Assembly (NCBI GenBank): GCA_963762255.1
Contig: CAVXKA010000001.1
Location: forward strand, 1,056,001 to 1,120,000
Length of the DNA: 64,000 nucleotides
From: Candidatus Eiseniibacteriota bacterium
GTDB taxonomy: Bacteria; Eisenbacteria; RBG-16-71-46; JABDJR01
Reading direction: 5' to 3'
Position numbers and translations under genes: made by a program. The notes beneath the pieces are model-generated. The model saw only the letters and a list, made by a program, of their open reading frames with translations, searched no databases and was not told the origin of the DNA. Shown here piece by piece: positions 15,403 through 59,164 of this stretch; position 1 is the stretch's first letter, and every line of letters begins with the position of its first letter.

Positions 15403-15479
15403 GGGGTCGTAGTTCAGCTGGTTAGAACGCCGGCCTGTCACGCCGGAGGTCGCGAGTTCGAATCTCGTCGGCCCCGCCA
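15403..15479 (+). tRNA. tRNA-Asp (GTC)
   Basis: Acceptor stem GGGGTCG/CGGCCCC, D-arm AGTTCAGCTGGTTAGAAC, anticodon loop CTGTCAC, T-loop GTTCGAAT, encoded CCA. Confidence 0.97.
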
Positions 15480-33788: not shown

Positions 33789-34223
33789 TTATGGACATAA
33801 CAGCCGAATGCCCTTGACGACATCCAACCACGCCGTGTCCACGTTTTCCCATGATGTGACGGGTATCCCGTCAGTTGGCAACGCTTGCAGCTTACCAAAG
33901 GGTGCAGTGTGCCAATCGCAAGGCCTTGCGATCACCGGAACAACAATGCAGTCTCCAGCCTTCCTTCTGTCCATTGCTTGAGCAACCTCGACGCCCCAGC
34001 AATAGTCAGAGGCAATGAAATCAGCACTCACCAGGAATATCACTATGTCGGCCAGCTGAAGCTCCTGATCAATAACAGTGGCCCACTCAGCGCCCGGAAT
34101 GATCTTGCGATCGTGCCACTCCTGAACCTTTCCCTGCCGCTTGAGGAGACTCAGACTAGCTACAAGACGATCCCGATGCGCCTCATCGCAATGCGAGTAG
34201 CTGAGGAACACGCGCTTTGCCAT
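33789..34223 (-). CDS. Stand-alone TIR domain protein (TIR_2 type)
   Basis: VFLSYSH, WHDRKIIPG, LVSADFIASDYCWGVE (catalytic-position Glu), VVPVIARPCDW; GGAGG RBS. Confidence 0.93.
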   Translation of the reverse strand: MAKRVFLSYSHCDEAHRDRLVASLSLLKRQGKVQEWHDRKIIPGAEWATVIDQELQLADIVIFLVSADFIASDYCWGVEVAQAMDRRKAGDCIVVPVIARPCDWHTAPFGKLQALPTDGIPVTSWENVDTAWLDVVKGIRLLCP

Positions 34224-34266
34224 TCTCTACCCTCCAGTATCCAGTAGCGGGAGAACAACCGGAACC

Positions 34267-35634
34267 TCACGATTGTGGCGCACCCACCTTCGCGAATTCG
34301 AGAACACAGAATACCCTCTGAGCAAGGCGCTCAGGTTGCCCAGGCCAAGGTACAGCTCCAAGGTGATGCTCATGCACAAGGGTCAGGTCGCCCATACTAA
34401 GGACCTCGTCCCGGAACAGACTGCAGTCGAAGCTCCATAGGGCATTCTGCCGCCCAAAACCTGCCCCGCCGATATCAGCCAACAAGTCCTCCGGTTCAGC
34501 ATCCTCTGATAATTGCGCTGGCTTGTGGAATCCGAGGGACCTACACGGAATCGAAACAAGGAATGTGCCTCCAGGATTCAGTGCAGATAGGGCCAAGGAA
34601 AGCGCTCTTCGGTAATCCCTTACGTGCTGAAAGAACTCCAGTGCCAGGACGACATCAAACCGCAACCCGGGGTTCCACTGCAAGAAATCTCCTACCAAGA
34701 ACTCACAGTTGGCGTGTTCGGTCCGTGCACGCGCAACCTTCTCCAAAGAACATTCAACGCCCATGACCCGGGATGCACCGTGCAGCTTTGCCAAGCCGCA
34801 CACCTGCCCCTCAGCCGAACCAATCTCTAGAACGGTTTGGTCGCGCACAATCTTGGAAAGCCGAAATTCAACATACTCCAGGCGCCGCACGTGCAGCGGC
34901 CGACTGTACATGTCTCGTTGATGATGGCGCTCTGCCTCCAAGGAACGAACTCTACCAAGCCTCTCATCGAATCGCCTAGCGCGTGTTCCCTCAAGAGTCG
35001 TCCATTCAGCCTCTATGCCTACTGGACCCGAGGTCCGCGAGGAAAGGAAGCGAAGCGTCGGTAGGCTTGCGCCTTCCCATTGAAGGCAGACAAAGGCACC
35101 ACATTCAAAGTCAAAGACGAAGTCACTCCCGGAGGTCTCCAATGCCCGCAAGATGAGTCCGTTGAGAATGCCCCCATGGGCAATGACGGCAATCGGGCCT
35201 CTCATCCGCACAGCCTCCTGCAATGCCGTCCAAGCCGCCGCGCATCGAACTAAGAAGGCCGACATCACCTGTTGCGTATCTCGACCACCTTCGTGAATGT
35301 TGCGCCGGGCACCTCTCCAGGCCAAGGTCCGAATCGTCTCCGGAGACACGCCGACATTCTCAGCATCACTACGGCGTGGGCCTTCACTGAGCAGATCCGA
35401 TTCAATCATTCTAACGTCTCTCGCAAGATCGGTGGACATGAAGCGCGCAGTGATCTGTGCCGTCTCTTTCGCGCGCCGGAGAGGTGAATGCCAAATCTCC
35501 ACGACTTGCGAATAGCGAAGAGCCCAGGCAAGTGCACTTGCATCGAGCGTTCCAGCTGCCGACAATCCGGATTCATCCATATCTGCCGTGGCATGCCCAT
35601 GCCGCGCTAGAAAGAGTTCGTAGTGCGCTTTCAT
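34267..35634 (-). CDS. Histidine phosphatase + class I SAM methyltransferase fusion
   Basis: LARHG, HSPLRRAKETA, IAHGG in the N half; VLEIGSAEG, FDVVLALE, LNPGGTFL in the C half. Confidence 0.88.
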   Translation of the reverse strand: MKAHYELFLARHGHATADMDESGLSAAGTLDASALAWALRYSQVVEIWHSPLRRAKETAQITARFMSTDLARDVRMIESDLLSEGPRRSDAENVGVSPETIRTLAWRGARRNIHEGGRDTQQVMSAFLVRCAAAWTALQEAVRMRGPIAVIAHGGILNGLILRALETSGSDFVFDFECGAFVCLQWEGASLPTLRFLSSRTSGPVGIEAEWTTLEGTRARRFDERLGRVRSLEAERHHQRDMYSRPLHVRRLEYVEFRLSKIVRDQTVLEIGSAEGQVCGLAKLHGASRVMGVECSLEKVARARTEHANCEFLVGDFLQWNPGLRFDVVLALEFFQHVRDYRRALSLALSALNPGGTFLVSIPCRSLGFHKPAQLSEDAEPEDLLADIGGAGFGRQNALWSFDCSLFRDEVLSMGDLTLVHEHHLGAVPWPGQPERLAQRVFCVLEFAKVGAPQS

Positions 35635-37275
35635 GGTGCCGTTGCCTCCGCAATCTCTTCCGCGGTAAACAATCGTGGGATACTCAAGTCTTCGTTAAGC
35701 ACCCGAGTGAGATACTGGCATGCCCTTTTGATCATAGCAGCGGCCTGCCCGCCTGTGGATTGCTCCAGATCCTCCATCTTGCGAGTGGATCGGGCCGCCC
35801 ACCAGCCTGCGCCACAAAGGCGGAACAACCGAGTTGCGACCACGGCGAAGTAGTAAGCCCCGCTGGGTGCAGAAGAAGCTCTAAGATCTGCCAAGTACTC
35901 GTGGCTCTGCGCAATCCGGAAGACATCAGAACGTCCTTACGCCGTGCATCATGCCGGTAAAGAGGTGGCGCTCCGCATCCTCTGGGTAACCCGAAGCCGC
36001 AAGGCACCGCCCTTGGTCAATCAGAACTGCAAACACCTCGCGGGTATCGCCTACCTCCCGTGCCGTCCGAAGGGACTCATCCAGTAGCCGTGTCGCCTCT
36101 GACCATAAGCGTTGAGCAATGAACACTGCAGCGACCCTGTGCTTGGCAAATCCAATGCCCCGCGAGTTGTCATGCTCTATCGCGATATCGAGACCTTCTC
36201 GTGCCCAGGACATCGCCTTGACCAAGTCCAGTTCTTGATATAGATAGCAGAGTGAGAGCATTCCGCACGCAATGCCACGGCTACGAATGAGGGCGCTGGC
36301 CGCGGCCGGAGTGCTGGGGAGCGACGCCAACCTATCGTACTCCTCAAGTGCAAGAAGCATCTCCGACTTTGCTTCCTGGAACTCCCCTATGCGACGCAGG
36401 GTCGCGCCTAGGTTAATGCGGACCCGCGGAATGAATTCGCTACCCTGGGGAAGCAAGCTGAGTGAATCCCGGTAGCACTGCGCCGCCCGAGCAAGGTGTC
36501 CCTGCTCCCTGAGGATATTTCCGTGTCCATTCAATGCATGAGAGCGCACGGGTTTGGCACCAAGACGCTCTGCGATTCCAAACGCGAGAGTGTATTTGTG
36601 GTAGGCCGCAAACTGCTCTCCGATCTTGCGATCACAATCCGCCGCGCGAATCAGAAGGGACGCAGTTTTTGGCGTTGGTTCGTTTTCGCACTTTTTCAAT
36701 GCTGCTTCGTAAGCATTGTGAGCAAGACGATTCTGGCCTCCCCGAGCGAATTCCTCCGCCTCGCGGATGAGTGCAGCAAGCGTAGCCTCAGTTCTCGGCG
36801 GAAGCTTTGTGAGCCACACGTCCACACACTTATTGAGGACGCGTCGTATCTCGATGAAGAGTTGAGTACGGCGCCCGTCATTCTCGTAGTCGGTCTGTAC
36901 TGTCTCCCCAACGTTTGGGAATGGCTGGATGCTTCTCAGCCACTCGCTGTCTTGTGCCTCTATGGTGCATGGACGAAGAACAACGGGAATGACATCGATA
37001 CCGTCGCTCTCCCTGCAACGTCTGATCTCTGGAACTTCGTGGTTTTGGATATCTTGGTCATCCAGCCATTCTTGACCTAGAAGCAGGATGGCTATGTGCG
37101 CCTGATCCAGGTGCTTCTTCCGATCTTCGCTCCTATCAGCGCCAGGGGTGATCTTTCCCGGATGCCAGAGCGCGACGCCCTTTGATTCAAGGCCAGAGAG
37201 AATCGTAAGTAACTCGTGATTGCGGTCTTTCGCAACGCAGCTGATGTAGATTTCAACGAATGGGTAGTCGGGCAT
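35631..37275 (-). CDS. TIR-TPR protein; one-base frameshift near 35930
   Basis: N-terminal divergent TIR (IYISC...IAILLLG...VIPVVLRPC) then TPRs (ALNGHGNILREQG, INLGATLRRIGEFQEA). Deleting one A at 35930-35931 continues the frame into 35631..35894, whose stop overlaps the next ATG (ATGA). Confidence 0.82.
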
Positions 37276-37282
37276 CGGTAGC

Positions 37283-38428
37283 TTATCCTTCCATCGAACC
37301 TTGCGCTTGATCCAGGGTATCGGTGATGATGTCATCCCACATCGGGTTGTGGGTGGAACCCGGTAGTGCATTGAGAGTCGTCTTTACCAGCGGGCAGATC
37401 GGAACCAAGAGGGAATCATGTTCATACTTCGCGACTACCGGACAGGCCCCTGGGGGAAGGTTGTTTGCTAGGGAGATATACGATAGATCTTCGGGTGACT
37501 TGCTCAGGGCATTACTGTCCCTGATGGCCCACGCACGAACCCCCACAGCTTTGAGAAGGGGACAGCGGTAGACGTTCCCATCGGGAGTCAGATTGTACGT
37601 ATCAGCTGAAGAGGCCGGTAATCCAACGCCTGCCTTCTCAAGTGCCGCCGCCGCCACAGGCGGAACGAAAGCTACTGGTGCCCTCAGGTAGACGCGGCTC
37701 TTCGCTGCCAATTTTCGCCACGCCAGCACAAGTGCGAGCCATTCCCTGGGGCTCGGATTCAAGGGCGCGAGATGAGTCGGGTCCTGTGCAATATCCATGC
37801 GATGCAGATTGACAACAGTGACAGCTCTAGCCGCAGCGTAGGCCATGAGTGATTCAATGGACGCGGCGTTTGCTCTGGAGACGACAGTGGAGATACGCAA
37901 GGGGAGCCCCAACATGCCCGCACGCCGTATGCACTCATCTGCACGAGCGAATGCCCCCTTGAAACGGAGGCGATCGTTAACGGATTCGATTGGTGAATCC
38001 ACGCTCACAGATAGAAGGCGAATGCCTACCGCGCGAAGGTGATCAAGTTGCTCGGGATGGAGCGACCCATTCGTTTGGACTATTAGCTCAAATCCAAGTT
38101 CTCTGATGGCACTAACGAGTTCGTGGAATTCTGCGAAGAGAGCGGGCTCCCCGCCCACAAGTGTCACAAGAGTCACGCCATGAGACTTGAACCGGTCCAG
38201 CGCGGGGATAATGTCATGCATTGGCAATGTGCAGTGCGCCGTCCTTGCCTGGTGGGATAGGTAGCAGTACTGACAACTACAATTACAGTGTTCAGACGGT
38301 GTGAGGAAGAGGTGCTTGCCCATCGAGAAGTGCGGTCGGGACGGATCTACAGCAGAGGTGTTGGGTGGTAGCGATGCGGAGCCGCCCCCTGTCAATCGCG
38401 GGTCGCCGAGACGGTTCGTGTGTTCCAT
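37283..38428 (-). CDS. Radical SAM enzyme with a twitch/SPASM-like tail (start 38428 or 38323)
   Basis: CNCSCQYC, GGEP, QTNG, SVSVDS, TPDGNVYRCP, later CP...CP; stop lies 7 nt before the TIR-TPR ATG. Confidence 0.92.
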   Translation of the reverse strand: MEHTNRLGDPRLTGGGSASLPPNTSAVDPSRPHFSMGKHLFLTPSEHCNCSCQYCYLSHQARTAHCTLPMHDIIPALDRFKSHGVTLVTLVGGEPALFAEFHELVSAIRELGFELIVQTNGSLHPEQLDHLRAVGIRLLSVSVDSPIESVNDRLRFKGAFARADECIRRAGMLGLPLRISTVVSRANAASIESLMAYAAARAVTVVNLHRMDIAQDPTHLAPLNPSPREWLALVLAWRKLAAKSRVYLRAPVAFVPPVAAAALEKAGVGLPASSADTYNLTPDGNVYRCPLLKAVGVRAWAIRDSNALSKSPEDLSYISLANNLPPGACPVVAKYEHDSLLVPICPLVKTTLNALPGSTHNPMWDDIITDTLDQAQGSMEG

Positions 38429-38914
38429 GGTCGATGTGGTTCCTTGTCCAGCATCATCACGCACGATTTCCAATGGCAGGCCTTTGCTTACATATACAGT
38501 ATCCCTATGGACTCTGTACAGCCACACTGGGGTCATGTGGGCCGCTCATGAACAAACGCGAACCCTACCGCTACGCCCCCGTCCCCGGGACCCGCACCAA
38601 GCTCTGCAAGGTCACCCCCCATCCCGCTCGCTGCCGACCCTCGCCGTAGACCCTCAATGCCGTCTACGCCGAGGTCGGGCTTCCAGCACTCTCCCCCCTT
38701 CCCCCCGGGAGCGCCGCGGCGCCGCCAACAACCGTCGAACCAAGCCCGCCTCGCCAAACAATCCGGTAAGTACCCAGATGCGAGGAAGACCAGAACAGAG
38801 AACCCCGCCGACTTGACAAACTCATAGGTACTCCCCCTACGTCGGCAGAAACACGTACCTTGCCAGGAACACCAGCCCCAGGATCCGCACCAGCCCTGAC
38901 GCCGCGCGCCCGCG

Positions 38915-47801: not shown

Positions 47802-48941
47802 ATGAGCATGGTCATTGGTGTCCCAAAGGAAACTCATCGTCACGAGCACCGCGTCGGGCTCACCCCGTTCGCGGTGGCGCGGCTCACCCGGGAAGGCCAC
47901 ACCGTCCTCGTGGAACGCGAGGCGGGTGCCGGCGGACATTTCGGTGACCGCGACTTCCAGAACGCGGGAGCGCGCACCGTCTACAGCGCGGAGGAGGTCT
48001 ACCAGCGCTCGGACATGGTCGCCCGCGTGGGCATGTTGAGCACCGAGGAACTCGAATTCCTCAAGCCCGGGCTCATCGTGACCGGCTTCCATCATCTTGC
48101 CGTGTCGTCCCGCCCGATGGTGGAGCGGCTGCTGCAGAAGGAAATCACCCTCGTCGGGTACGAGATCATCGAGGACGGCTCCGGCGACCTGCCGGTGCTG
48201 CTGCCGTTCAGCGAGATGGCGGGCCAGATGGCGGTGCACCTGGCCGCTCACTACGCGCAGAACTCGACCGGAGGCCGCGGCATCCTGCTGGGCAGCGTCC
48301 CCGGGGTGCCTCCGCCCACCGTGCTGATCCTGGGCGCCGGCACCGTAGGCCGCGCGGCCGCGCGCCAGGCGCTGGCCAGCGGCGCGCATGTGATCGTGCT
48401 GGACGCCGACCTCGCCAAGCTCCGTCGCCTGAACCGCGACTTCCTGGGCCGGGCGGTGACGGTGATGGCCGGCCTCGAGCGGCTGGAGAAGTACACGGCG
48501 CTCTCCGACGTGGTCATCGGGGCCATCCTGATCCCCGGCGGGCGGCCGGACCTGCTCATCACCGAAGCAATGGTGAAGAGTATGAAGCAGGGGAGCGTGA
48601 TTATCGACGTATCTATCGATCAGGGCGGTTGCGTGGAGACGAGCCGGCCCACGGACATCGAGAACCCGACTTTCAAGGTCCACGGGGCGCTTCACTACTG
48701 CGTCCCCAACATGACCGCGAACATTCCGCGGACGGCGTCGCGTGCGCTGGCTACCGCGGCCCTGCCTTACCTGCTGCGTCTTGCCGAGAAGGGCTTGGCG
48801 GGGGCGGCCGGTGAGGATCCGGGTCTCGCTGCAGGGGTCTATCTCTGTCGGGGGAAGATGGTGAAGAAGGTGGTGGGAGAGACCCTCGGGTTCCCGGTGA
48901 CCCCGCTCGCGTCCCTCCTGGAAAAGGGAGCGCGGTCATGA
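47802..48941 (+). CDS. ald: Alanine dehydrogenase
   Basis: IGVPKE...EHRVGLTP, GAGTVG, DVSIDQGGCVETS, HYCVPNM; AGGAGG RBS. Confidence 0.9.
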   Translation: MSMVIGVPKETHRHEHRVGLTPFAVARLTREGHTVLVEREAGAGGHFGDRDFQNAGARTVYSAEEVYQRSDMVARVGMLSTEELEFLKPGLIVTGFHHLAVSSRPMVERLLQKEITLVGYEIIEDGSGDLPVLLPFSEMAGQMAVHLAAHYAQNSTGGRGILLGSVPGVPPPTVLILGAGTVGRAAARQALASGAHVIVLDADLAKLRRLNRDFLGRAVTVMAGLERLEKYTALSDVVIGAILIPGGRPDLLITEAMVKSMKQGSVIIDVSIDQGGCVETSRPTDIENPTFKVHGALHYCVPNMTANIPRTASRALATAALPYLLRLAEKGLAGAAGEDPGLAAGVYLCRGKMVKKVVGETLGFPVTPLASLLEKGARS

Positions 48942-50235
48942 GTTGGTACGACGACTACAAGAGCAAGCTGGTGCCTGCTGCCGAAGCAGTGTCCCAGATC
49001 AAGAGCGGCGACAACGTCTACTACGGCGGCAACGCGGCCATCCCGTTCGGGCTGGTGCGGGCGCTGGCCGGTCGGCGGGATGAACTCACCGACGTGCATC
49101 TGAGCCACGTGCTCTTGGTGGGCAAGGATCCGCTCTCCACGCCGGACATGGCCGGCTCCTTCCGCCACAACTCCCTCTTCGTGGGTCCCGCGGATCGCGA
49201 AGCGGTCAACGACGGGCGCGCCGACTACGTGCCGGTCTTCCTCTACATGATTCCCCGTCTCTTCCTCGACAAGATCATCCCGGTCGACACGGCGATGGTC
49301 ATGACGTCCCCCCCGACGAGCACGGCTTCATGAGCCTCGGGGTGGAGACGCTGGCCTCGAAGGCGGCGTGCCAGATGGCCAAGCGCGTGGTCGTGCAGGT
49401 CAACGAGAAGATGCCGCGCGTGCTGGGCGACTGCTTCCTGCACGTGAACCGCGTGGACGCGATCGTGGAGCACACCGAGGGCCTGCCGCAGCTCGAGGTG
49501 AAGCCGGCCAACCCGGTGGAGCTTGCGATCGGCGCGAACATCCTGAAGCTCATCGAACCGGGGGCGACCCTGCAGATGGGCATCGGAGGGGTCCCCGACG
49601 CAGTGTTCGCGGCGCTGAGCGGGCCGCTCGATCTGGGCATCCACACCGAGATGCTCTCGGACGGCGGGATGCACGCGATCGAGCGCGGCGTGGTGACCGG
49701 GAACCGCAAGAGCCTCCACCCCGGCAAGGTCGTGATCACGTTCGCGCTGGGTACCGACAAGCTCTACGAGTTCCTCGACAACAACCCGCTCATCGAGGCC
49801 CATCCGGTCAGCCACGTGAACGATCCCTTCGTGGCCAGCCAGAACGACAATCTGGTGGCGGTGAACTCGGCGATCGAGGTGGATCTCACCGGCCAGGTGT
49901 GCTCGGACTCCATCGGCACCTATATCTACTCCGGGTTCGGCGGTCAGGTGGACTTCATCCGCGCCGCCGCGCGCTCCAAGGGCGGGAAGCCGGTCATCGC
50001 GGTGCAGGCCACCGCGCAGGGCGGCAAGATGTCGCGCATCGTGCCGATGCTCAAGCCGGGGGCGGGGGTGGTGACGAGTCGGGCCGACGTGCATTACGTG
50101 GTGACGGAGTACGGCACGGCCTACCTGTTCGGGAAGAACCTCCGGCAGCGCGTGGAGGCCCTGATCGCCATCGCGGACCCGAAGTTCCAGGACGAGCTGG
50201 AGAAGGCGGCGAAGGAACGCAAGCTGCTGCCCTGA
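48938..50235 (+). CDS. Acetyl-CoA hydrolase / 4-hydroxybutyrate CoA-transferase family; frameshift in the C7 run at 49308-49314
   Basis: GRADYVPVFL, LQMGIG, GIHTEM, SGFGGQVDF, VVTEYG; adding one C restores SPPDEHGFMSLG. Confidence 0.9.
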
Positions 50236-50275: not shown

Positions 50276-51244
50276 ATGACCCGGGTTGTTCTCGTCACAC
50301 CGGCAGATCCAAGCGGTTGCACCGGAAACGCGGTGACCGCCCATCGCTGGGCGCGGCTTCTGCGCCGGCTCGGCTGCCGCGTCCGGGTCGTTCATGCCTA
50401 CGAGGGCGAGCCGTGCGATCTTCTCATCGCGCTCCACGCGAGGAAGAGCGCGGCGTCGGTGGCGCGCGTCCGGCGCGAGTCGCCGGAGACTCCGATCGTG
50501 GTCGCGCTCACCGGCACGGATCTCTACCACGATCTTCGCCGCAGCGCCTCGGCGCGGCGCACCATCGACGTCGCTTCGAAGCTCGTCGTCCTTCAGCCGC
50601 TCGCTCTCCGCGAGCTCCCCGCTCGCTACTGGCCCAAGACGGTGGTGATCCGCCAGTCGGTGCGCATGCCCTGGGTGCGTCCCCCGGCGCGTGCGCGACA
50701 CTTCGACGTCGCCGTGCTCTCGCACCTGCGGCGCGTGAAGGATCCGTTGCGCGCGGCGTACGCGGCGAGACGCCTTCCCCCCGAGTCGCGCATCCGCGTG
50801 CTGCACGCGGGAGCGGCGCTGGAGATCGCGTATCTCGACCGCGTGCGGGCGGAGGCCGAGCGCAACCCGCGGTACGTGTGGAAAGGGGAGCTCCCGCGCT
50901 GGAAGGCCAAACGTCTCCTCGCTTCGAGTCACCTTCTCCTGGTCACGTCGCTATTGGAGGGCGGTGCCAACGTGATCTCCGAAGCGGCGGTGGCCAGTGT
51001 GCCGATCCTGGCCACCCGCGTCCCAGGCAACATCGGTCTTCTCGGCAAGACCTATCCCGGCTATTTCGACGTAGGCGACACCGAGGGTCTGGCGGAACTC
51101 ATGCACCGCGCCGAGACCGACCGCGATTTCTACGCCGACCTCGTTCGCCACGTGCGGGCGCTCAAGCGGTTGCTGCTTCCGGCCCGGGAGCTCGCCGCCT
51201 GGAAACTCGAGCTGGAAGAACTTTGTGGCGGGCTCGGTTCGTAG
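50276..51244 (+). CDS. senB: Selenosugar synthase SenB-like glycosyltransferase (TIGR04348-like)
   Basis: GNAVTAHRW, IALHARKS, LTGTDLY, HLRRVKDP, EGGANVISEA. Confidence 0.85.
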   Translation: MTRVVLVTPADPSGCTGNAVTAHRWARLLRRLGCRVRVVHAYEGEPCDLLIALHARKSAASVARVRRESPETPIVVALTGTDLYHDLRRSASARRTIDVASKLVVLQPLALRELPARYWPKTVVIRQSVRMPWVRPPARARHFDVAVLSHLRRVKDPLRAAYAARRLPPESRIRVLHAGAALEIAYLDRVRAEAERNPRYVWKGELPRWKAKRLLASSHLLLVTSLLEGGANVISEAAVASVPILATRVPGNIGLLGKTYPGYFDVGDTEGLAELMHRAETDRDFYADLVRHVRALKRLLLPARELAAWKLELEELCGGLGS

Positions 51245-51283: not shown

Positions 51284-52228
51284 ATGATCGGCAGATGCGT
51301 TTTTCTCGCGGCGATCCTCTTCGTCGGGGCGATGACCGTCGTCGTGCCGGCGCGCGCGTTCTCTCAGGATGATGCCGCGCCGCCGCCCGCTTTCTCTCAA
51401 GACGACGCCGCGCCGCCGCGCGCGCGCGCTCCAGAGACTTCCGCATCACGCGACTCCTTGCGCTCGCTTCCCGCGTACGTGGTCAGGAAGCCCACCGAGT
51501 CGAGCGCGGATCTCATGACCCTATCCGAGATCATCGCCCGGTGCGTGGAAGGGGAGAAAACCAAGCTCGCCGGCCACCGCGACATGACGTTCACCGGAAC
51601 GGTGCGGGTGGTCTCCACCTGGAAGCAGAAGCGCCTCGTGATCGACAGCGCGTTTCTCGCATACGAGGACGACGCCGGTTTCGCGAAGATGATCCGCCTC
51701 GGCGAGCAGCGACGGATGTACAAGCGCCAGGGCGAGGAGTGGGTCTACGACAAGGACGAGAAGGAAGAGGAGATCCGGGTGGGCGTCGAGGTCGGCGAAG
51801 GGGGCGAGGGGCTGGCGGAGCTGCCGTTCTTCCTCAAGGACCAGGGGGAGTATAAGTTCTCCCTCCAGGAGCGCGTGCTCGAGGGGGACCACGTCATCTT
51901 CAAGATCGCGTTCCGCCCGCGCACCGATTTCAAACCGCTCCCGTCGGGCACGGTCTACGTGGACACCGACGCGTTTCGCATCATCCACGAGGAGTTTGCC
52001 TTCGACGTGCAGAACCCTGTGCCGCTGTTGCTCAAGGACGTGAGGCGGGTCACCCGCGAGTGGCGGGAGCTGCCGACCGGCGAGTGGGTGGTGGCGAGCA
52101 TTCGCGCCGACGCCGAGCTACGCGGCGGGTGGTTCGCAGCGATGCCGAATCGGATCGAGCTGGGAGTGAACATCGAGGACTATCGCTTCGACCAGGGCTA
52201 CGATGAAGCCCGCTTCGGGAAGCGCTGA
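51284..52228 (+). CDS. Secreted hypothetical protein
   Basis: Signal peptide; beta-rich C-terminal region (FKIAFRP, GTVYVDTDAFRI); coupled to the downstream barrel gene. Confidence 0.75.
   Translation: MIGRCVFLAAILFVGAMTVVVPARAFSQDDAAPPPAFSQDDAAPPRARAPETSASRDSLRSLPAYVVRKPTESSADLMTLSEIIARCVEGEKTKLAGHRDMTFTGTVRVVSTWKQKRLVIDSAFLAYEDDAGFAKMIRLGEQRRMYKRQGEEWVYDKDEKEEEIRVGVEVGEGGEGLAELPFFLKDQGEYKFSLQERVLEGDHVIFKIAFRPRTDFKPLPSGTVYVDTDAFRIIHEEFAFDVQNPVPLLLKDVRRVTREWRELPTGEWVVASIRADAELRGGWFAAMPNRIELGVNIEDYRFDQGYDEARFGKR
51356..51421 (+). repeat. 33-bp in-frame tandem duplication (AFSQDDAAPPP / AFSQDDAAPPR)
   Basis: Two copies that differ mostly at synonymous positions. Confidence 0.85.
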
Positions 52229-52229
52229 C

Positions 52230-53600
52230 ATGCGAGGCGCACGCGCGTTCTCGATAGCCCTCTTGGGCGGCGCTCTTCTCGCGTGGAGCGGCCCCGCGCC
52301 GGCGCAGGAGCCGGGACAAACGCGGACGCTCGTGCCCGGTCAGGAGCCGGCCCCCTCCGACACCCTGCAACCCGGAAGCCTCCTCGATCGGCTCCAACGC
52401 GAGGACCGCAGCTTCTATTCCGACGAGATCGTGAACATCGACCGAGCGCTGGCCGATTCGGGGCTGGCCGCGCTCGACTCGCTCGGTTTCAAGGCGTTCG
52501 AGCGCGAGACCTTGAAGGGCGCGCGCGGGCGCGGCTTGAGCTTCGGCTTCGCCAACGAGCTGGGTCTCTACAACCGCGTGGAGGGAGGGATCGCCGGTTT
52601 GGGCGTGCGGCTGCGGGTGCCCGTCGCGACGGGGCCCGAGCTTCGGCTGCAAGGCGGCTATGCCTCCGGACCGCGCAAGTTCCGGCACTACGAATCGCTG
52701 CGCGTTCCGTTGAGCCTGCGCTATCGCGCGCCGGTCGTGGAGGCAGGCTACGCCGACCGAGCCGTTCGCTACTATGCCGATGAAGTGGGCGAGGATCTCC
52801 TCACCGCGTTCTTCGGATCGGACGCGGAGGAGAATTACATCCACCGCCGCGGGGGATGGATCGGGTTCTCGTGGGAGGGAAGCCCGGCGGGCAAATGGTC
52901 GTTGCGCGCCGAGGCGGCGACGGAGGACTCGGTGCGCCGGCGCACCGACTACGGCCTCTTTGGAAGCGAGCGCGACATGAGCCCCAACTTGCCGGTCGAC
53001 AGCGGCCGCGATCGCGCGATCGAGGGGACGTGGGAGTTGGGTTCGGTCCTCTCCGGCCGGCAGGCGATCGCGCTGCGGCATCGCGTGGCGGGCGGCGCTC
53101 TGGGCGGAGACTTCGCGTATTCGCGGTTCGCGGCGACAGCTTCCGCGCGCCGCTTCCTCGTGTTGAACCACGAAGCGGTCGTCGATCTGGCCTACGTGCG
53201 TGTCGGCGGACGGCCTCCCGGCCAGCGTCTCGCGGATCTGGGAGGTCTGGGCACGGTGCGAGGATTCCTCCCCCGCGCGCGCGTGGGAACGGAGTCGTTG
53301 CGAGCGCGCCTCGAGGTGCAGGTGCCCTACGATGTGTTCAAGCGGGCGCGGGTGCCGCTCTTGCGGAAAGCGGGGCTGCAACTCGTGCCGTGGGCCGACG
53401 CGGGCCGCGTGTGGGGCGGCGATCCCGCGGATGGGGACGGCCCCGGCTCCTGGTTCACATCCGCCGGGCTCGGCGTGCAGAAGCTGCTCGGCCCATTCGG
53501 CGAGGCATCGTTCATACGACTCGACGTGGCGGTGCCGATGGGCCCTGAGCGGCGGGATGACGTTCGCGCCTACCTCTATTTCGCGCGCGGGCTGTTCTGA
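52230..53600 (+). CDS. Outer membrane beta-barrel protein (Omp85/BamA-TamA-like C-terminus)
   Basis: Signal peptide; YNRVEG, LGGLGTVRGF, DAGRVW, RLDVAVP, terminal Phe. Confidence 0.8.
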   Translation: MRGARAFSIALLGGALLAWSGPAPAQEPGQTRTLVPGQEPAPSDTLQPGSLLDRLQREDRSFYSDEIVNIDRALADSGLAALDSLGFKAFERETLKGARGRGLSFGFANELGLYNRVEGGIAGLGVRLRVPVATGPELRLQGGYASGPRKFRHYESLRVPLSLRYRAPVVEAGYADRAVRYYADEVGEDLLTAFFGSDAEENYIHRRGGWIGFSWEGSPAGKWSLRAEAATEDSVRRRTDYGLFGSERDMSPNLPVDSGRDRAIEGTWELGSVLSGRQAIALRHRVAGGALGGDFAYSRFAATASARRFLVLNHEAVVDLAYVRVGGRPPGQRLADLGGLGTVRGFLPRARVGTESLRARLEVQVPYDVFKRARVPLLRKAGLQLVPWADAGRVWGGDPADGDGPGSWFTSAGLGVQKLLGPFGEASFIRLDVAVPMGPERRDDVRAYLYFARGLF

Positions 53601-53602
53601 CG

Positions 53603-56023
53603 ATGACATCGCGAGTTGCCGGCATCGGTTTGGTCATCCTGGTGCTGGCGACTACCGTCCTTCGGGACCATCTGAGCACATCTCTCCCATGGTTCGATGC
53701 CCGGGATTCCACCGGCTACTTCTGGACCGAAGGCGCCGTTCACTATCGCCATGCCCGGATGGTCGCCGACGGAGTCGGGATTCCCGATACCGACCGGGCA
53801 TTGCAGTACCCGGAGGGCATCGCGCCGCGACGCCACCTCACGCTTCTCATGGACTTCGTCAGCGGTGACACCTATCGGCTCTTGAAGCCTGTCCTCGGCT
53901 CGATGACGTTCCACGTGTACCTCATTCACCTCACCAGTTTCGTGTCGAGCCTGAGCGTAGTCGCCGTGTTCTTCCTCGCGTGGGTGCTCTTTCGATCCTG
54001 GGGCGCAGCGCTGCTTGCCGGCGTGATCTTCGCGACCGCCCCGTCAAGCCTCGACAGGCTCGTCGGCACATACGAGCGAGAGAGCTTCGCGGTCCCGCTC
54101 CTCCTGGGGAGCTTGGCGGCGTTTGCGGCAAGCTGCGACGAGAGCCGCGGGCGCCGGGCGGCTCTGTGGGGGCTGATCGCGGCGGCGCTGACTGCGACCG
54201 GTCTTGCCGCGTGGCACTTCGCGCGGTTCTACTACCTCATGTTCACGCTGAGTTGCTGCGCATGGTTTGTCGTGAATGGGGGCAGGCCGCGGCTCGCGGA
54301 GAGTGCCTTTGGGAGACCAGGGGGCGCTGAAGCCCCGGACGGGTTCAGGTGGGGGATCCTTCTGGTTTCCGGAGGGGCGCTCCTCGTCGGGTCTCTGGTC
54401 CCCGTTCTGCAAGAAAGCCGGCTCGTGCTTTCACCGGCATTCATCCTCTCTCTCGCGCTACTTCTCGGCTTGGAGGTGGACAGACGGTTCTTCCCGGGTC
54501 GGTCAGACGGCGCGGGTGGGGTGAGGCGTCGAGCGCTCCTGCTGGCCTCGTTCTCCGTGCCGCTGGTAGCCGTCGCCCTCGCCTTGGCGCGAGAGGCATC
54601 GGATTTCGGGCACGTCTACTCACTCCTCTGGGCGAAGATCGTCCACCTCGGCGTGAAACCGGAAGACCCGGCGCGCCTCACCGACGAAGCGCGGTTCCTC
54701 TGGGTCGATGGATTCAACAGCCCTACTGCCCCGTACCTCCTCACCAGGATCCTACCCATCGCCCTGATGACGGCAACCGGCCTCGTCGGACTGCACAGGG
54801 GGCGTTTCCCTGTGACGCGGTCGCCGGCGCCCTTCCTCGTCGCCATGCTTTCCGTTTGTTTCGTGGTGCTCTACTTCTTTGTTCGGCGGCTGTCGATATT
54901 CGCCGTCGCCTTCCTCGCCGTTTGGGCGGCGGCGTGGCTCTGGCGGACGACCGTCCGGTTCCGTGTCGGCGCCGCACTTCTGGCAGTGCCCTTGGTGTTA
55001 TTGCAGACAAACGAGACCCTGCATGTGAACGGCCGTACCTGGTTCCGGCGGGCGGCGGCAGGAGCCGGCGTATCGACCGAAGACCAAGATGCGCGCCATT
55101 GGGGGACCAGACTCGGAGTGCTCTACTGGATCCGCGACAACACCGACTCGTCGGACGTCTTCCTCGGTCCGGTGGGATTCAGCCCCGCGATCCTTGCCTA
55201 CTCCGGCCGCCCCATCGCGGTTCACCCCATGTACGAGACCGCGGCCATCCGTGGCAAAGTGCGCGAGTTTTACGGCGCCACGTATGCCAGCCCGGAATCG
55301 TTGCTCGCATGTTGTCGAAGGTGGGGGGTGAGCTACTACCTGCACACCATGGAAGGGGCATTGAACACCTCTCCTGATGGCACCCGGTACATGGCCGATG
55401 CCCTGACGTTGCGAAAATCATCGGCCGCATTCCTGTGTCAGTTCGCGCCGGAGCGACTCCCCGATCTGGAACTCGTCTACCAGGATCCGTCGTGCCGGCT
55501 ATTCCACATCCGGGAGGACGGTCGAACCGTGCCCGCGATGCGCAGGTTCCAAGACCCCGTGTACGACATCAAGACGTTTGGGAGCCAGGAGCTTGAGGGC
55601 GACGCTTTTGACGATCGCTCGACGGCGGAAGTGCTCGACCGCCTGGAACGCGCGCGTCTCTCGGCGGAAGCCGGGCGCAAGCTACTGGCAGCCCGACAGA
55701 TCGACGAGGCCATCAAGGCGCTGGAGGCGGCGATCGAACTCAACTACTGGGTGAGCGGAGCCCACGGCTATTTGGGGGTCGCTCTTGCGGAGCAGGGTCG
55801 TTATCCGGAGGCGCTGGCGGCTGGCAACACCGAGGTCAACCTGGATCGGGACAGCGCCGAGGCCCACTACAATATGGGCTACATCCACAATCGCTCCGGA
55901 CGGTACACGTCGGCCTTGCGTGAGTTCGAGATCGCGCGCGATCTGAAACCCACATTGAAGGACGTCAACTCGAAGATTCAGGACCTCAAGAGACGGCTCG
56001 GAACGGACGGCCAGGGCAGGTGA
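53603..56023 (+). CDS. GT-C fold glycosyltransferase, DPY19/STT3-like, with C-terminal TPRs
   Basis: Many TM helices; FWTEGAVHY, RESFAVP, GHVYSLLWAK, WIRDNT..DVF, HPMYE; TPRs (AHGYLGVAL, AHYNMGYI). Confidence 0.8.
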   Translation: MTSRVAGIGLVILVLATTVLRDHLSTSLPWFDARDSTGYFWTEGAVHYRHARMVADGVGIPDTDRALQYPEGIAPRRHLTLLMDFVSGDTYRLLKPVLGSMTFHVYLIHLTSFVSSLSVVAVFFLAWVLFRSWGAALLAGVIFATAPSSLDRLVGTYERESFAVPLLLGSLAAFAASCDESRGRRAALWGLIAAALTATGLAAWHFARFYYLMFTLSCCAWFVVNGGRPRLAESAFGRPGGAEAPDGFRWGILLVSGGALLVGSLVPVLQESRLVLSPAFILSLALLLGLEVDRRFFPGRSDGAGGVRRRALLLASFSVPLVAVALALAREASDFGHVYSLLWAKIVHLGVKPEDPARLTDEARFLWVDGFNSPTAPYLLTRILPIALMTATGLVGLHRGRFPVTRSPAPFLVAMLSVCFVVLYFFVRRLSIFAVAFLAVWAAAWLWRTTVRFRVGAALLAVPLVLLQTNETLHVNGRTWFRRAAAGAGVSTEDQDARHWGTRLGVLYWIRDNTDSSDVFLGPVGFSPAILAYSGRPIAVHPMYETAAIRGKVREFYGATYASPESLLACCRRWGVSYYLHTMEGALNTSPDGTRYMADALTLRKSSAAFLCQFAPERLPDLELVYQDPSCRLFHIREDGRTVPAMRRFQDPVYDIKTFGSQELEGDAFDDRSTAEVLDRLERARLSAEAGRKLLAARQIDEAIKALEAAIELNYWVSGAHGYLGVALAEQGRYPEALAAGNTEVNLDRDSAEAHYNMGYIHNRSGRYTSALREFEIARDLKPTLKDVNSKIQDLKRRLGTDGQGR

Positions 56024-56105
56024 CGGACCCGAGACCGCTGGCGGCATGGCAGAGGTGAGACGGCCGGGGGGCGTCGCGCGCACCCCGGCCCCAGGCACGA
56101 GTCGA

Positions 56106-56309
56106 TCAGAGCCCGGTCGGGATGTCTCGGTCCATGACCGTCTTGCGGCCGTCGCTCTTGGCGTTCTCGATGGCCCGGTCGCAGAGCCGGCGGATGGCGT
56201 CGGAGAGAGCCGGCGCGACGTTGGAAGCGGTGTTCATACCCGACTTGTCGCGGATGTAGTTCTTGAGCTTGGAAACGACGATGAGGACTTCGCCTTCGGC
56301 AGCGTTCAT
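56106..56309 (-). CDS. Bacterial histone-fold protein (Bd0055/HBb-like singlet)
   Basis: 67 aa: VLIVVSKLKNYIR..SGMNTA....LSDAIRRLCDRAIENAKSDGRKTVMDRDI; RKTV..RD histone L2 motif; GGAGG RBS. Confidence 0.88.
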   Translation of the reverse strand: MNAAEGEVLIVVSKLKNYIRDKSGMNTASNVAPALSDAIRRLCDRAIENAKSDGRKTVMDRDIPTGL

Positions 56310-56370
56310 TCTGAACCTCCATGAAGTGTTGGCGGGGGGATGAGCTGATGCGGACGTGGCCCGCGCCCAA

Positions 56371-58041
56371 CTATACGACAGGCCGGCGCAGGTGGAAACC
56401 GGTCTTGTCCTGATACGCCTTGGCTACGAGCAACGCGTCTGCTTCCCCGAAAAGCCTGCCGGTGAACGAGATGCTGGCCGGGGTGCCGTCCTCTCGGAAC
56501 CCGCTGCGCACCACCACTGTCGGCTGGCCGGTCAGGTTGGCGATCAGGAGCGTGTTGCCGCCGAAAGAGGGGTGCACGTATACATCCACCGCGTCGAACA
56601 CCCTCTCATAGGATTCCATGAGCACGGTGCGCGCGCGGTTGGCCTGGATGTACTCGACTGCGGGGATGAACCGAGCGGCGCGGAAGACGTTGGGCCACGC
56701 CTGCTCCTCCTGGCGCGTCATCATCTCGTCGCGGCCGGAGCGTGTGAGCTCGTCGAACGCGGCCGCTGCCTCCGCCTCCAGGATGAACAGCATGTCGCCC
56801 ACCGGGAGCGGCGGAAGCTCCACCGGCTTGAGCGCGAAACCCATCTGACGCAGGGCCTGGAGCGCGCCCTCGTCCAAAGCGTGATCCGGGCTCTCTTCCT
56901 CGAACGCCTTCACGTCGTAGCCGACTCGCAGTGTGCGCGGGTCGCGGCCGGCATCCCACGCGAACGGCGCGTCGATCACCGCGCCGTCCTTGTCGTCGGC
57001 TCCGCGGATCGCGTCGAGCACGAGCGCGCAATCCTCGACGGTACGGCATAAAGACCCGACCTTGTCCATGCTCCAGGAGAGCGCCATCGCACCGTGGCGG
57101 CTCACGCGGCCGAAGGTGGGACGGAGCCCGGTCGCGCCGCAGCGCGAGGACGGCGAGACGATCGAGCCCAGCGTTTCGGTCCCGATCGCGAACCCCACCA
57201 ATCCCGCGGCGACGGATGCGGCGGAGCCCGCCGACGATCCGCTCGAGCCCTGCTCCAGGTTCCATGGATTGCGAGTGGTGCCGCCGAACCATACGTCGCC
57301 CCACGCAAGTTCGCCGACGCTGGTCTTGGCGAGGAGCACGGCGCCCGCGTCTTCCAAGCGCTTCACCACGGTGGAATCCTCTGTGGGCACTTGATCCTTG
57401 TATGGGTTCGAGCCCCATGTCGTGGGAATGCCCTTGGTGGCGAAGAGGTCCTTCACGCCGTAGGGGATGCCGTGGAGCGGGCCGCGCACGACGCCGCGGC
57501 GTAGTTCGTCGTCCGCGCGGCGCGCCTGCTCCAGCGCGCGCTGCTCGGTGAGCGTGATCACGCAGTGGAGCTGCGGATCGAAGCGCTTGAGGCGTCCGAG
57601 ATAGAACCGCGTCAGGTCGAGCGAGGTGATGCGCCGCTCGCGCAGAAGCGCCCCCAGGTGCGTCAGCGGAAGGAACGCGAGATCCTCGCCGTCGGTGGGT
57701 ATTGCCGGCGCGGCGACTTGCGTCGGGCGGATCGGCACTTCCTCGCCGGTGACGCGCCGGCCAGGCAAGAGCGGGCTGAAGGTGAGCGCGGGCGGCACCG
57801 AGTTCGATAGCGGGACCTCGCGCAGCTTCTCGAAGTTGCCGAGGTGATCCTTGACTCCCGTCTCCATGAGCTTGCGCTCGTCCTCTGTGAAGGGAAGGCC
57901 GGTGATCGCTTCCGCCTTCGCGATCGCGGCGCGAGTGATCGCCTCCTTGCTCTGCGCGAGCACCTCGGGGGCGAGGAGCGCGGCCGCTCCCAGCGAGGAG
58001 AACCACGCGATGAAGTGGCGGCGATCGAGGTCGTGGTTCAT
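56371..58041 (-). CDS. Amidase-signature family enzyme with a Tat-like signal
   Basis: RRHF twin-Arg; GVKDL, GSSGSSAGS, IGTETLGSI. Confidence 0.92.
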   Translation of the reverse strand: MNHDLDRRHFIAWFSSLGAAALLAPEVLAQSKEAITRAAIAKAEAITGLPFTEDERKLMETGVKDHLGNFEKLREVPLSNSVPPALTFSPLLPGRRVTGEEVPIRPTQVAAPAIPTDGEDLAFLPLTHLGALLRERRITSLDLTRFYLGRLKRFDPQLHCVITLTEQRALEQARRADDELRRGVVRGPLHGIPYGVKDLFATKGIPTTWGSNPYKDQVPTEDSTVVKRLEDAGAVLLAKTSVGELAWGDVWFGGTTRNPWNLEQGSSGSSAGSAASVAAGLVGFAIGTETLGSIVSPSSRCGATGLRPTFGRVSRHGAMALSWSMDKVGSLCRTVEDCALVLDAIRGADDKDGAVIDAPFAWDAGRDPRTLRVGYDVKAFEEESPDHALDEGALQALRQMGFALKPVELPPLPVGDMLFILEAEAAAAFDELTRSGRDEMMTRQEEQAWPNVFRAARFIPAVEYIQANRARTVLMESYERVFDAVDVYVHPSFGGNTLLIANLTGQPTVVVRSGFREDGTPASISFTGRLFGEADALLVAKAYQDKTGFHLRRPVV

Positions 58042-58080
58042 GGCGTTCCTCATTCCTTGCCCCTTCCGGAACAGTGCTAT

Positions 58081-59164
58081 CTACACATGCTCACCCGGGT
58101 GAGCACTCGCAATCGCTCCGCGCACCATCTCCGCGACCGCCTCCACCCACATCGGGTGCGCGTTGAGCGACGGCACGAGGTGGAATGCCTCGCCCCCCGC
58201 CGCGAGGAACGTGTCCTTGCCGCGCAGACCGATCTCCTCCAGCGTTTCCAGGCAGTCGGCCACGAACGCGGGGCAGAGCACTGCAAGCCGCTTCACCCCG
58301 CGCTTGGGCAGTTCGCGCAGCGCGACGTCGGTGTAGGGCTTGATCCACGGCACCCGGCCGAGTCGCGACTGGAACGTCACCTGGTATTGATCAGGGGAGA
58401 GTCCCAACTCCTCGGCCAAGAGCCGCGACGTGGCGAAGCACTGCGCGCGATAGCAGCGGCGGTTCACGGTCGCGAGCGCGTCGCAGCATCCGTCCCCGCG
58501 CAGACAGTGCGCGCCGCTCTCGTCACCCTTGCGCACCTGCGATTCGGGAAGGCCGTGGTAGCTCATGAGCACGAAGTCGGGATGGAATTCGTGCAGCACC
58601 GGTCGTACCCACCGCGCCGAACGCGCGAATGAAACTGGGCTGATCGAAGAAGGGGGGCACGGTCACGAGGTCGGGCACGTTCCAGAGATCGCCGACCTCG
58701 GCGAACACCTTCTCCAGCGTGGAGCCGCCGGTGGCGGACGCATACTGCGGATAGAGCGGGAGCACCACGATGCGATCCACCGCCTGCGCGTGCAGCTTCG
58801 CGAGCCCCTCCGCGATGGACGGCGTGCCGTAGCGCATGGCCAGCTCGACCGGCATGTCCGGCCCCAGCCGCGCTTGCACGCCGCGCGTCAACTCGCGGCC
58901 GTACACGAGCAGCGGCGACCCGTCGTCCGTCCAGATCTTGCGGTACGCCTCGGCGGACTTGGCCGGCCGGAAGGGGAGGATGATGAGATTGAGCAACGCT
59001 GCTCGACCCAGCGCCGGCATGTCGAGCACGCGCGGATCGGAGAGGAACTCGCGCAGGTAGCGGCGCACCTCGGGCGTACGCGGCGCGTCCGGCGTGCCGA
59101 GGTTCACGAGCAGCGCGCCGGTCTTGGTCGAGCGATGCGAAGCGGCCGGGTCAGGTGCGTTCAT
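58081..59164 (-). CDS. hemH: Ferrochelatase; one-base frameshift at about 58606-58625
   Basis: LLVNLGTP, YLREFLSD, AMRYG, PLYPQY in 58523..59164; SYHGLP, FQSRLG, DCLETLEE in 58081..58599. Confidence 0.93.
58087..58106. repeat. Dispersed palindrome, copy 3 (ATGCTCACCCGGGTGAGCAC)
   Basis: 19/20 match; lies in the last codons of hemH, about 45 bp upstream of the amidase start. Confidence 0.75.

Follow-up and report, generated by a model that had tools for sequence, protein, structure and literature searches.

We analysed a 64,000-nucleotide stretch of a Candidatus Eiseniibacteriota genome (GCA_963762255.1, contig CAVXKA010000001.1, positions 1,056,001 to 1,120,000; hereafter the window), in which one gene encodes an 806-amino-acid membrane protein (P0001) resembling DPY19, the tryptophan C-mannosyltransferase of animals. 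The protein belongs to the Dpy19 family, is modelled with the DPY19 fold, and carries the conserved catalytic and donor-binding residues of that family together with C-terminal tetratricopeptide repeats (TPRs). We propose, at a probability of roughly 60%, that it is an intact and probably active bacterial GT-C enzyme of the DPY19 branch (the DPY19/STT3 group), working in the periplasm as a protein glycosyltransferase that depends on a polyprenyl-phosphate-sugar, and that its gene was acquired by a single-gene gain.

Membership of the DPY19 family

The gene is an uninterrupted frame of 806 codons. The Pfam Dpy19 profile (PF10034) matches its product with an E-value of 1.2e-22 (80.4 bits, cut-off 27.2); Pfam STT3 (PF02516) and the PMT families give no match to it even at E<=1, and no Pfam model of a PMT_2/TMTC-type membrane domain matches it. 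A phmmer search with residues 1-660 against PDB sequences returned one distinct match, Caenorhabditis elegans DPY19 (CeDPY19; 7zlg, E 2e-4), pairing RESFAVP with RESFAFP, GHVYSLLWAK with AHIFDILRSK, WIRDNTDSSDVFLG with WIQHNTKQDAVFAG, and RPIAVHPMYE with RPIVNHPHYE. Likewise, a profile built from 27 TPR-less homologues (profile A3) matched CeDPY19 at 3e-24 (88.6 bits) among PDB sequences, against 7e-15 (57.7 bits) for the best STT3 and 2e-12 for STT3A.

An earlier examination of the letters alone (the sequence-only reading) had quoted five motifs as DPY19-like, and all five occur in the protein in the order given: FWTEGAVHY (residues 40-48), RESFAVP (159-165), GHVYSLLWAK (336-345), WIRDNTDSSDVFLG (509-522) and PIAVHPMYE (537-545). 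The resemblance goes beyond chance, since four of them pair with CeDPY19 in the phmmer alignment and their columns are conserved across 98 homologues. The WWDYG motif is absent, as had been claimed: neither WWD nor WWDYG is found anywhere in the 806-residue sequence, and the WWDYG stretch of STT3A aligns to a non-conserved 'ladfglsp' of the family profile. The C-terminal TPRs were also correctly recognized, with Pfam TPR_2 (6.9e-10) and TPR_16 (1.6e-9) matching residues ~682-790; further NCBIfam matches to the protein are sub-threshold TPR models only. The TPR domain is predicted to be periplasmic because it follows the periplasmic alpha/beta domain.

An AlphaFold2 (AF2) model built on 98 sequences reached a mean predicted local distance difference test score (pLDDT) of 92.9 and a predicted template modelling score of 0.93. 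In it, ~13 membrane helices are followed by an alpha/beta domain at residues 480-640 and seven TPR helices at 671-799. The 13 transmembrane helices, long external loops EL1 and EL5, and C-terminal alpha/beta dome that superpose on CeDPY19 are all present in the model. Foldseek placed CeDPY19 entries in the top three positions (E 6e-18, target-normalised TM score 0.75), followed by STT3, AglB and PglB. The superposition on C. elegans DPY19 that the sequence-only reading had suggested as a check gave, at the level of fold, CeDPY19 as the best match: VIA-align against 7zli returned Z 32.5 and a root-mean-square deviation of 2.9 over 579 aligned residues, model residues 1-637 lying on CeDPY19 26-684. 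Z values were 30.8-30.4 for STT3, 27-28 for AglB, 22 for PglB and ~18 for PMT and ArnT. The assignment to DPY19 rather than to STT3/PglB or PMT is thus upheld by Pfam, by the profile comparison with PDB sequences and by fold, and none of the three scores the protein better as STT3/AglB or PMT. Sequence favours DPY19 clearly, fold only slightly.

The family is large. Searching 1.84 billion cluster representatives with residues 1-660 (phmmer) returned 789 matches at E<=1e-3, 596 at <=1e-10 and 239 at <=1e-30, these being clusters at 50% identity. Sixty homologues, hand-picked from the 98 and including six of the longest and six of the shortest proteins, were scanned with Pfam: Dpy19 matched 57 of them, and at least 41 carry TPRs, so that the TPR fusion is the common form of the family. 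Homologous loci, sought with an alignment of the four closest sequences (A2), were found at thirteen places in species-representative genomes labelled as Gemmatimonadota, Eisenbacteria, Glassbacteria, Elusimicrobiota, Verrucomicrobiota, a deltaproteobacterial symbiont and others (labels of metagenome-assembled genomes, MAGs). One MAG holds two paralogous Dpy19-like genes on separate contigs (L004 8001-10253 and L006 8001-9983). The source genome (4.14 Mb, 3 contigs, 93.6% complete) has a single copy. Searches for eukaryotic DPY19 relatives gave five proteins, all bacterial, by word-indexed search with profile A3, and six by single-protein search. The nearest neighbours by features in a protein atlas, taken as a lead only, are bacterial Dpy19 and bacterial STT3-like clusters. 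Nine public sequencing runs contained <=0.10 of the sampled words.

Active site, donor and acceptor

Residues of CeDPY19 with roles assigned in PMC10154233 and PMC8433626 were mapped onto the window protein from phmmer, A3-profile and STT3A alignments, and their frequencies were counted in the 98 homologues (Table 1). The donor phosphate/lipid site is kept: R429 and W204 are almost invariant, and F206 and L430, the counterparts of Phe264 and Leu472, are hydrophobic. The EL1 catalytic carboxylate, Glu71 in CeDPY19 and Asp in DPY19L4, is present as E43. Furthermore, the peptide-responsive loop of CeDPY19 (His575-Arg584) is kept as H541-P-M-Y544-E545...R550, which together with WIRDNT lies in the alpha/beta domain. 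Mutation of Glu71, Arg211 or Arg471 abolishes or nearly abolishes CeDPY19 activity (PMC10154233), and the same is reported for Glu579 (PMC8433626). EL5 carries a conserved motif specific to the bacterial family, K-P-x-D-P-x-x-L...R-x-L-W. Together, these alignments indicate that the catalytic and donor-binding core is conserved.

Table 1. Functional residues of CeDPY19, their counterparts in the window protein, and conservation among 98 homologues.
CeDPY19 residue and role	Window protein	Conservation
Glu71, catalytic base	E43	E 91, D 7 of 98
Arg211, Trp(+3) pocket	R152	89/98
Glu220	E160	92/98
Trp262, phosphate	W204	97/98
Arg471, phosphate	R429	97/98
Tyr578, Trp(0) groove	Y544	aromatic in 92/98
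Glu579, essential	E545	94/98
Arg584, end of peptide-responsive loop	R550	94/98
Lys473, Trp(+3) pocket	S431	variable, S in 28/98
Leu474, floor of Trp(+3) pocket	I432	V 47, P 13, I 11 of 98
Tyr395, Trp(0) groove	L359 or A357 by alignment used	not conserved as aromatic
Phe401, Trp(0) groove and lipid groove	F365	variable

The glutamate put forward as catalytic in the sequence-only reading lines up, at the level of sequence, with the catalytic acid of the enzyme group. Direct alignment of E43 with CeDPY19 Glu71 is weak (-1.2 bits); against STT3A the EL1 stretch gives a significant alignment (35.4 bits), placing E43 opposite the catalytic Asp49, F-Q-Y-R opposite F-N-Y-R and Y-P-E-G opposite Y-P-L-G. 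R152, E160 and R429 fall on R160, E169 and R405 of STT3A (residues named in PMC6801728). In the DxE metal motif of STT3, the first acid (D167) has its counterpart at position 158. The window protein has E there, but only 11 of the 98 homologues do, and this acid is likewise not conserved in CeDPY19; STT3A E169 maps to the conserved E160. EL5, transmembrane helices 11-13 and the periplasmic domain are DPY19-like, and EL1 is STT3-like. By these alignments the bacterial family looks like a branch near the DPY19/STT3 split.

Several observations weigh against our proposal, or narrow it. Fold alone barely splits DPY19 from STT3 and, with STT3 scoring so close behind CeDPY19, is not decisive. The EL1 motif E-x-A-F-Q-Y-R...Y-P-E-G aligns significantly with D-P-Y-F-N-Y-R...Y-P-L-G of STT3A and not with CeDPY19, which makes the family a mosaic. 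Because R152, E160 and R429 are common to STT3A, they lend no specific support to C-glycosylation. In the pocket that receives WxxW, Arg211 is kept, whereas the Lys473 and Tyr395 equivalents are not and the Leu474 and Phe401 positions vary; with this pocket conserved only in part, another sequon is to be expected. Finally, the activity proposed here for a bacterial DPY19-like member is a prediction, and we infer a protein acceptor only from homology and the TPRs.

The proposed enzyme would sit in the inner membrane with ~13 helices and a cytoplasmic N-terminus, placing the active site, the alpha/beta domain and the TPRs in the periplasm. It would take its sugar from a polyprenyl-phosphate-sugar whose phosphate Arg429 and Trp204 may hold, with Glu43 acting as acid/base and no metal site of the STT3 type. 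The sugar would then be transferred to a side chain in a protein that has been exported but not yet folded and that the TPR domain may help to hold. A lipid-monophosphate-sugar donor is plausible from the gene content of the source genome, which has 30 GT2 matches; 10 of the 16 best resemble polyprenyl-phosphate glycosyltransferases (ArnC, AglJ or PpgS), all below curated cut-offs.

As to the acceptor atom, the retained peptide-sensing loop H-P-x-Y-E...R makes C2 of tryptophan the leading single candidate, tentative as that assignment is. If tryptophan C2 does accept the sugar, the animal WxxW sequon is unlikely to be the one recognized. A wider reading is possible, though doubtful: that bacteria C-glycosylate protein tryptophan in the periplasm, that the TPR-fused family is the prokaryotic stock from which eukaryotic DPY19 came, and that an STT3-like EL1 combined with a DPY19-like EL5 and dome marks the branch point of the N- and C-linked machineries.

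The strongest competitor to a protein acceptor is a periplasmic lipid, lipopolysaccharide or polysaccharide, as with ArnT and the arabinosyltransferases, in which case the TPRs would be a scaffold attaching the enzyme to an envelope machine. Many GT-C enzymes use lipids or glycans, and the fold comparison also matched ArnT, AftA, AftB and AftD, with lower scores (Z ~18). GT-C enzymes are numerous in the source genome, where PMT_2 matches 23 times, 18 of them above the Pfam cut-off (loci e.g. L017-L024), and the neighbourhoods of homologous genes vary, an MFS transporter or an HD/HDOD protein recurring in 4 of 14 loci each. However, DPY19 and STT3/AglB/PglB, which come nearest by sequence and by fold, all glycosylate proteins, and the anchor residues of the peptide-sensing loop are kept. 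Moreover, in GT-C enzymes with fused TPRs, such as the animal TMTCs, the repeats serve protein substrates. We consider a non-protein acceptor unlikely.

Neighbouring genes and a probable single-gene gain

Upstream of the Dpy19-like gene, on the same strand, lies a row made up of a GT4-type glycosyltransferase gene, P0003 and P0002 (Table 2). P0002 begins with what resembles a signal peptide, ends in ...GLF and scores 23.4 bits against Omp85 (cut-off 24); its model is of low confidence (pLDDT 55.5) with ~16 strands. Judging from the starts of its orthologues, its start is probably the second Met. The spacing is as tight as had been described: 2 nt separate the P0002 stop from the Dpy19-like start, and 1 nt separates P0003 from P0002 if P0002 begins at 52230.

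Table 2. Features of the DPY19-like gene and its surroundings, in window coordinates.
Feature	Position	Strand	Basis or remark
DPY19-like GT-C glycosyltransferase with C-terminal TPRs (P0001)	53603..56023	+	806 aa; Pfam Dpy19, TPR families, model pLDDT 92.9
Membrane domain, residues 1-473, ~13 transmembrane helices, long external loops EL1 (27-81) and EL5 (~330-375)	53603..55021	+	AF2 helix list; CeDPY19 superposition
Codon of Glu43, predicted catalytic acid/base (= CeDPY19 Glu71, STT3A Asp49)	53729..53731	+	alignments, conservation
Periplasmic alpha/beta domain, residues 480-640, counterpart of the DPY19 'luminal dome'	55040..55522	+	alignment to CeDPY19 H575-R584, secondary structure, conservation
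TPR domain, residues 671-799, seven helices	55613..55999	+	Pfam TPR, AF2 helices, TPR structures Z ~18 over 679-805
GT4-type cytoplasmic glycosyltransferase, first of the GT4-P0003-P0002 row	50276..51244	+	relatives' loci
P0003, secreted protein, weak match to part of DUF5686	51284..52228	+	signal-peptide-like N-terminus; kept beside P0002 in relatives
P0002, predicted outer-membrane beta-barrel (Omp85-like, weak)	52203..53600	+	start probably 52230
2507-bp stretch here, 62 bp in same-genus genome	53601..56107		blastn of window 52000-58200 vs same-genus contig

From this arrangement the sequence-only reading had proposed a C-glycosylation and export module, in which a WxxW tryptophan C-mannosyltransferase would act with the upstream secreted protein and barrel, the TPRs choosing those proteins as clients. 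The 2-nt gap, the common strand, the Dpy19 membership and the conserved catalytic core all agree with it, as do a homologue (L004) followed just downstream by a gene for a 1027-residue PD40 and Omp85 protein, and GT4 genes near L004 and L012. The module fails nonetheless, because the same-genus junction is only 62 bp, the row is kept where Dpy19 is missing, and the homologues elsewhere have other neighbours. The same-genus contig reads AlaDH, acetyl-CoA hydrolase, GT4, P0003, P0002, a small open reading frame (ORF) and an amidase, which is the order of the window minus the Dpy19-like gene; that genome is 75% complete, with the junction intact on one contig. Clear orthologues of P0002 occur in 7/7 same-family genomes, none of which has a Dpy19 match. 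In six relatives' loci (L037-L042), from genomes lacking a Dpy19 match, GT4-P0003-P0002 is kept in five and P0003-P0002 in all six. Conversely, tblastn with eight window proteins on the 14 homologous loci matched the Dpy19-like gene alone and found no relatives of its neighbours. A Pfam scan of 91 neighbouring ORFs at those loci revealed varied contexts: besides the recurrent HD/HDOD proteins, found upstream, and the nearby MFS transporters, GT4 occurs at two of the 14, an Omp85-domain protein at one and a PMT_2 plus TPR protein at one.

The clients proposed for such a module fare no better. Direct inspection of P0002 and P0003 found no WxxW, and the Trp(+3) pocket lacks a conserved equivalent of Lys473. 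Genome-wide, counted on 2996 crude longest-ORF calls, WxxW occurs 290 times against 244-263 in shuffled sequences, while other W-W spacings occur 281-326 times; a search of the whole genome for a WxxW-rich client found no protein with more than three WxxW and no special excess. TSP_1 (PF00090) had no match in the source genome, a search that was also blank in control genomes. We regard the module as very improbable.

A single-gene gain most likely explains the arrangement, being the most economical reading of these sequence comparisons; the alternative is loss in the relatives. Within the phylum Dpy19 is rare, matching in one of 40 relatives and in three of 206 genomes including the source genome, two of them above cut-off. 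The gene has a GC content of 0.643 and a third-position GC (GC3) of 0.782, both lower than in the eight neighbouring genes measured, which range over 0.654-0.699 and 0.824-0.947, respectively. A search for repeats at the boundaries of the 2.5-kb indel found one shared 8-mer, which is at chance level in GC-rich DNA. The gene would have been gained singly downstream of the conserved GT4/secreted-protein/barrel row, with which it may be co-transcribed while remaining functionally untied. That it is an inactive relic or a pure scaffold, as its rarity in the phylum might suggest, is the least credible reading of all, given the 806-residue open frame, the confident model and the presence here, and in 89-98 of 98 homologues, of all mappable residues whose mutation is lethal to CeDPY19.

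Other features were noted around these loci and in the window. P0003 and P0002 (51284-53600) are a tightly coupled pair, conserved across the taxonomic family of the source bacterium, usually with GT4 upstream (L037-L042). The acetyl-CoA hydrolase/transferase (48938-50235) is divided into two adjacent ORFs, an N-terminal one of 131 residues and a C-terminal one of 301; the same split is found in all six relatives' loci that have the region, which speaks for a genuine arrangement or a common frame feature and against an error. At four loci from MAGs belonging to different phyla (L007 1830-5194, L009 1711-3958, L011 600-1580 and L015 7023-7949), an HD/HDOD gene is found just upstream of the Dpy19-TPR homologue and in the same orientation; at two of the four an MFS transporter gene stands between them. 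A lower-GC island (0.56 against ~0.67) at 33789-38536 on the reverse strand carries genes for a small TIR protein, a histidine-phosphatase and methyltransferase fusion, a TIR and TPR protein and a radical SAM enzyme, and may be a defence island. The sole Rfam match in the window is a tRNA gene at 15403-15476 on the forward strand.

Comparison with known systems

A search of the open-access literature, with most subscription journals outside its scope, found no description of a bacterial DPY19 homologue. All known C-mannosyltransferases are described as homologues of CeDPY19 in the 2023 structure paper PMC10154233, which also considers a common ancestor of the C- and N-linked machineries probable. 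E. coli and yeast are said, in a passage of PMC8433626, to lack C-mannosyltransferase activity, and the excerpted text of PMC12990085 brings in bacteria solely for their degradation of C-Man-Trp and for their lectins. The bacterial family, with its hundreds of clusters, keeps every mapped residue essential to CeDPY19 and thus offers a concrete candidate, one that could be expressed, for asking whether bacteria carry out carbon-linked protein glycosylation; it is also relevant to the divergence of the N-linked and C-linked machineries. Should the acceptor differ, the family would still represent periplasmic GT-C enzymes of an uncharacterised class, equipped with a TPR arm for docking substrates.

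The closest known system is DPY19 itself. The PF10034 family, which includes C. elegans DPY-19 and human DPY19L1-L4 (PDB 7ZLG/7ZLH/7ZLI/7ZLJ), is assigned to CAZy GT98 in PMC6801728, and CeDPY19 has 13 transmembrane helices with the loops EL1 and EL5 (PMC10154233). The window enzyme shares with it the best sequence and fold match, the ~13 helices and C-terminal alpha/beta dome, the equivalents of Glu71, Arg211, Glu220, Trp262, His375, Lys383, Arg471, Tyr578, Glu579 and Arg584, and the lack of both WWDYG and a conserved first DxE acid. It differs in being bacterial and in its predicted orientation towards the periplasm, where DPY19 faces the lumen of the endoplasmic reticulum, in an identity of only 16-17%, and in having C-terminal TPRs, an EL1 closer to STT3, an EL5 motif of its own and no conserved Lys473 or Tyr395 equivalents.

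STT3, AglB and PglB come next. Their WWDYG motif binds the +2 Ser/Thr of the N-x-S/T sequon. The window protein resembles them in fold (Z 30.8-22), in the profile match of 7e-15, and in sharing with STT3 the EL1 around the catalytic acid, Y-P-x-G, and the residues R160, E169 and R405 of STT3A. Unlike STT3, it has no Pfam STT3 match at E<=1 and no WWDYG, the first DxE acid is E in just 11/98 homologues, and its EL5 and C-terminal domain align with DPY19. STT3/AglB/PglB (PF02516) are assigned to CAZy GT66 in PMC6801728.

The same source assigns the animal TMTC1-4 proteins to GT105, and TMTCs are also named in PMC11292533. In both the window protein and TMTC1-4, a GT-C membrane domain is followed by non-cytoplasmic TPRs, which are taken to hold protein clients. 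In animals these enzymes, with their luminal TPRs, O-mannosylate cadherins. They belong to another GT-C family, and the window protein has no Pfam match of the PMT_2/TMTC type.

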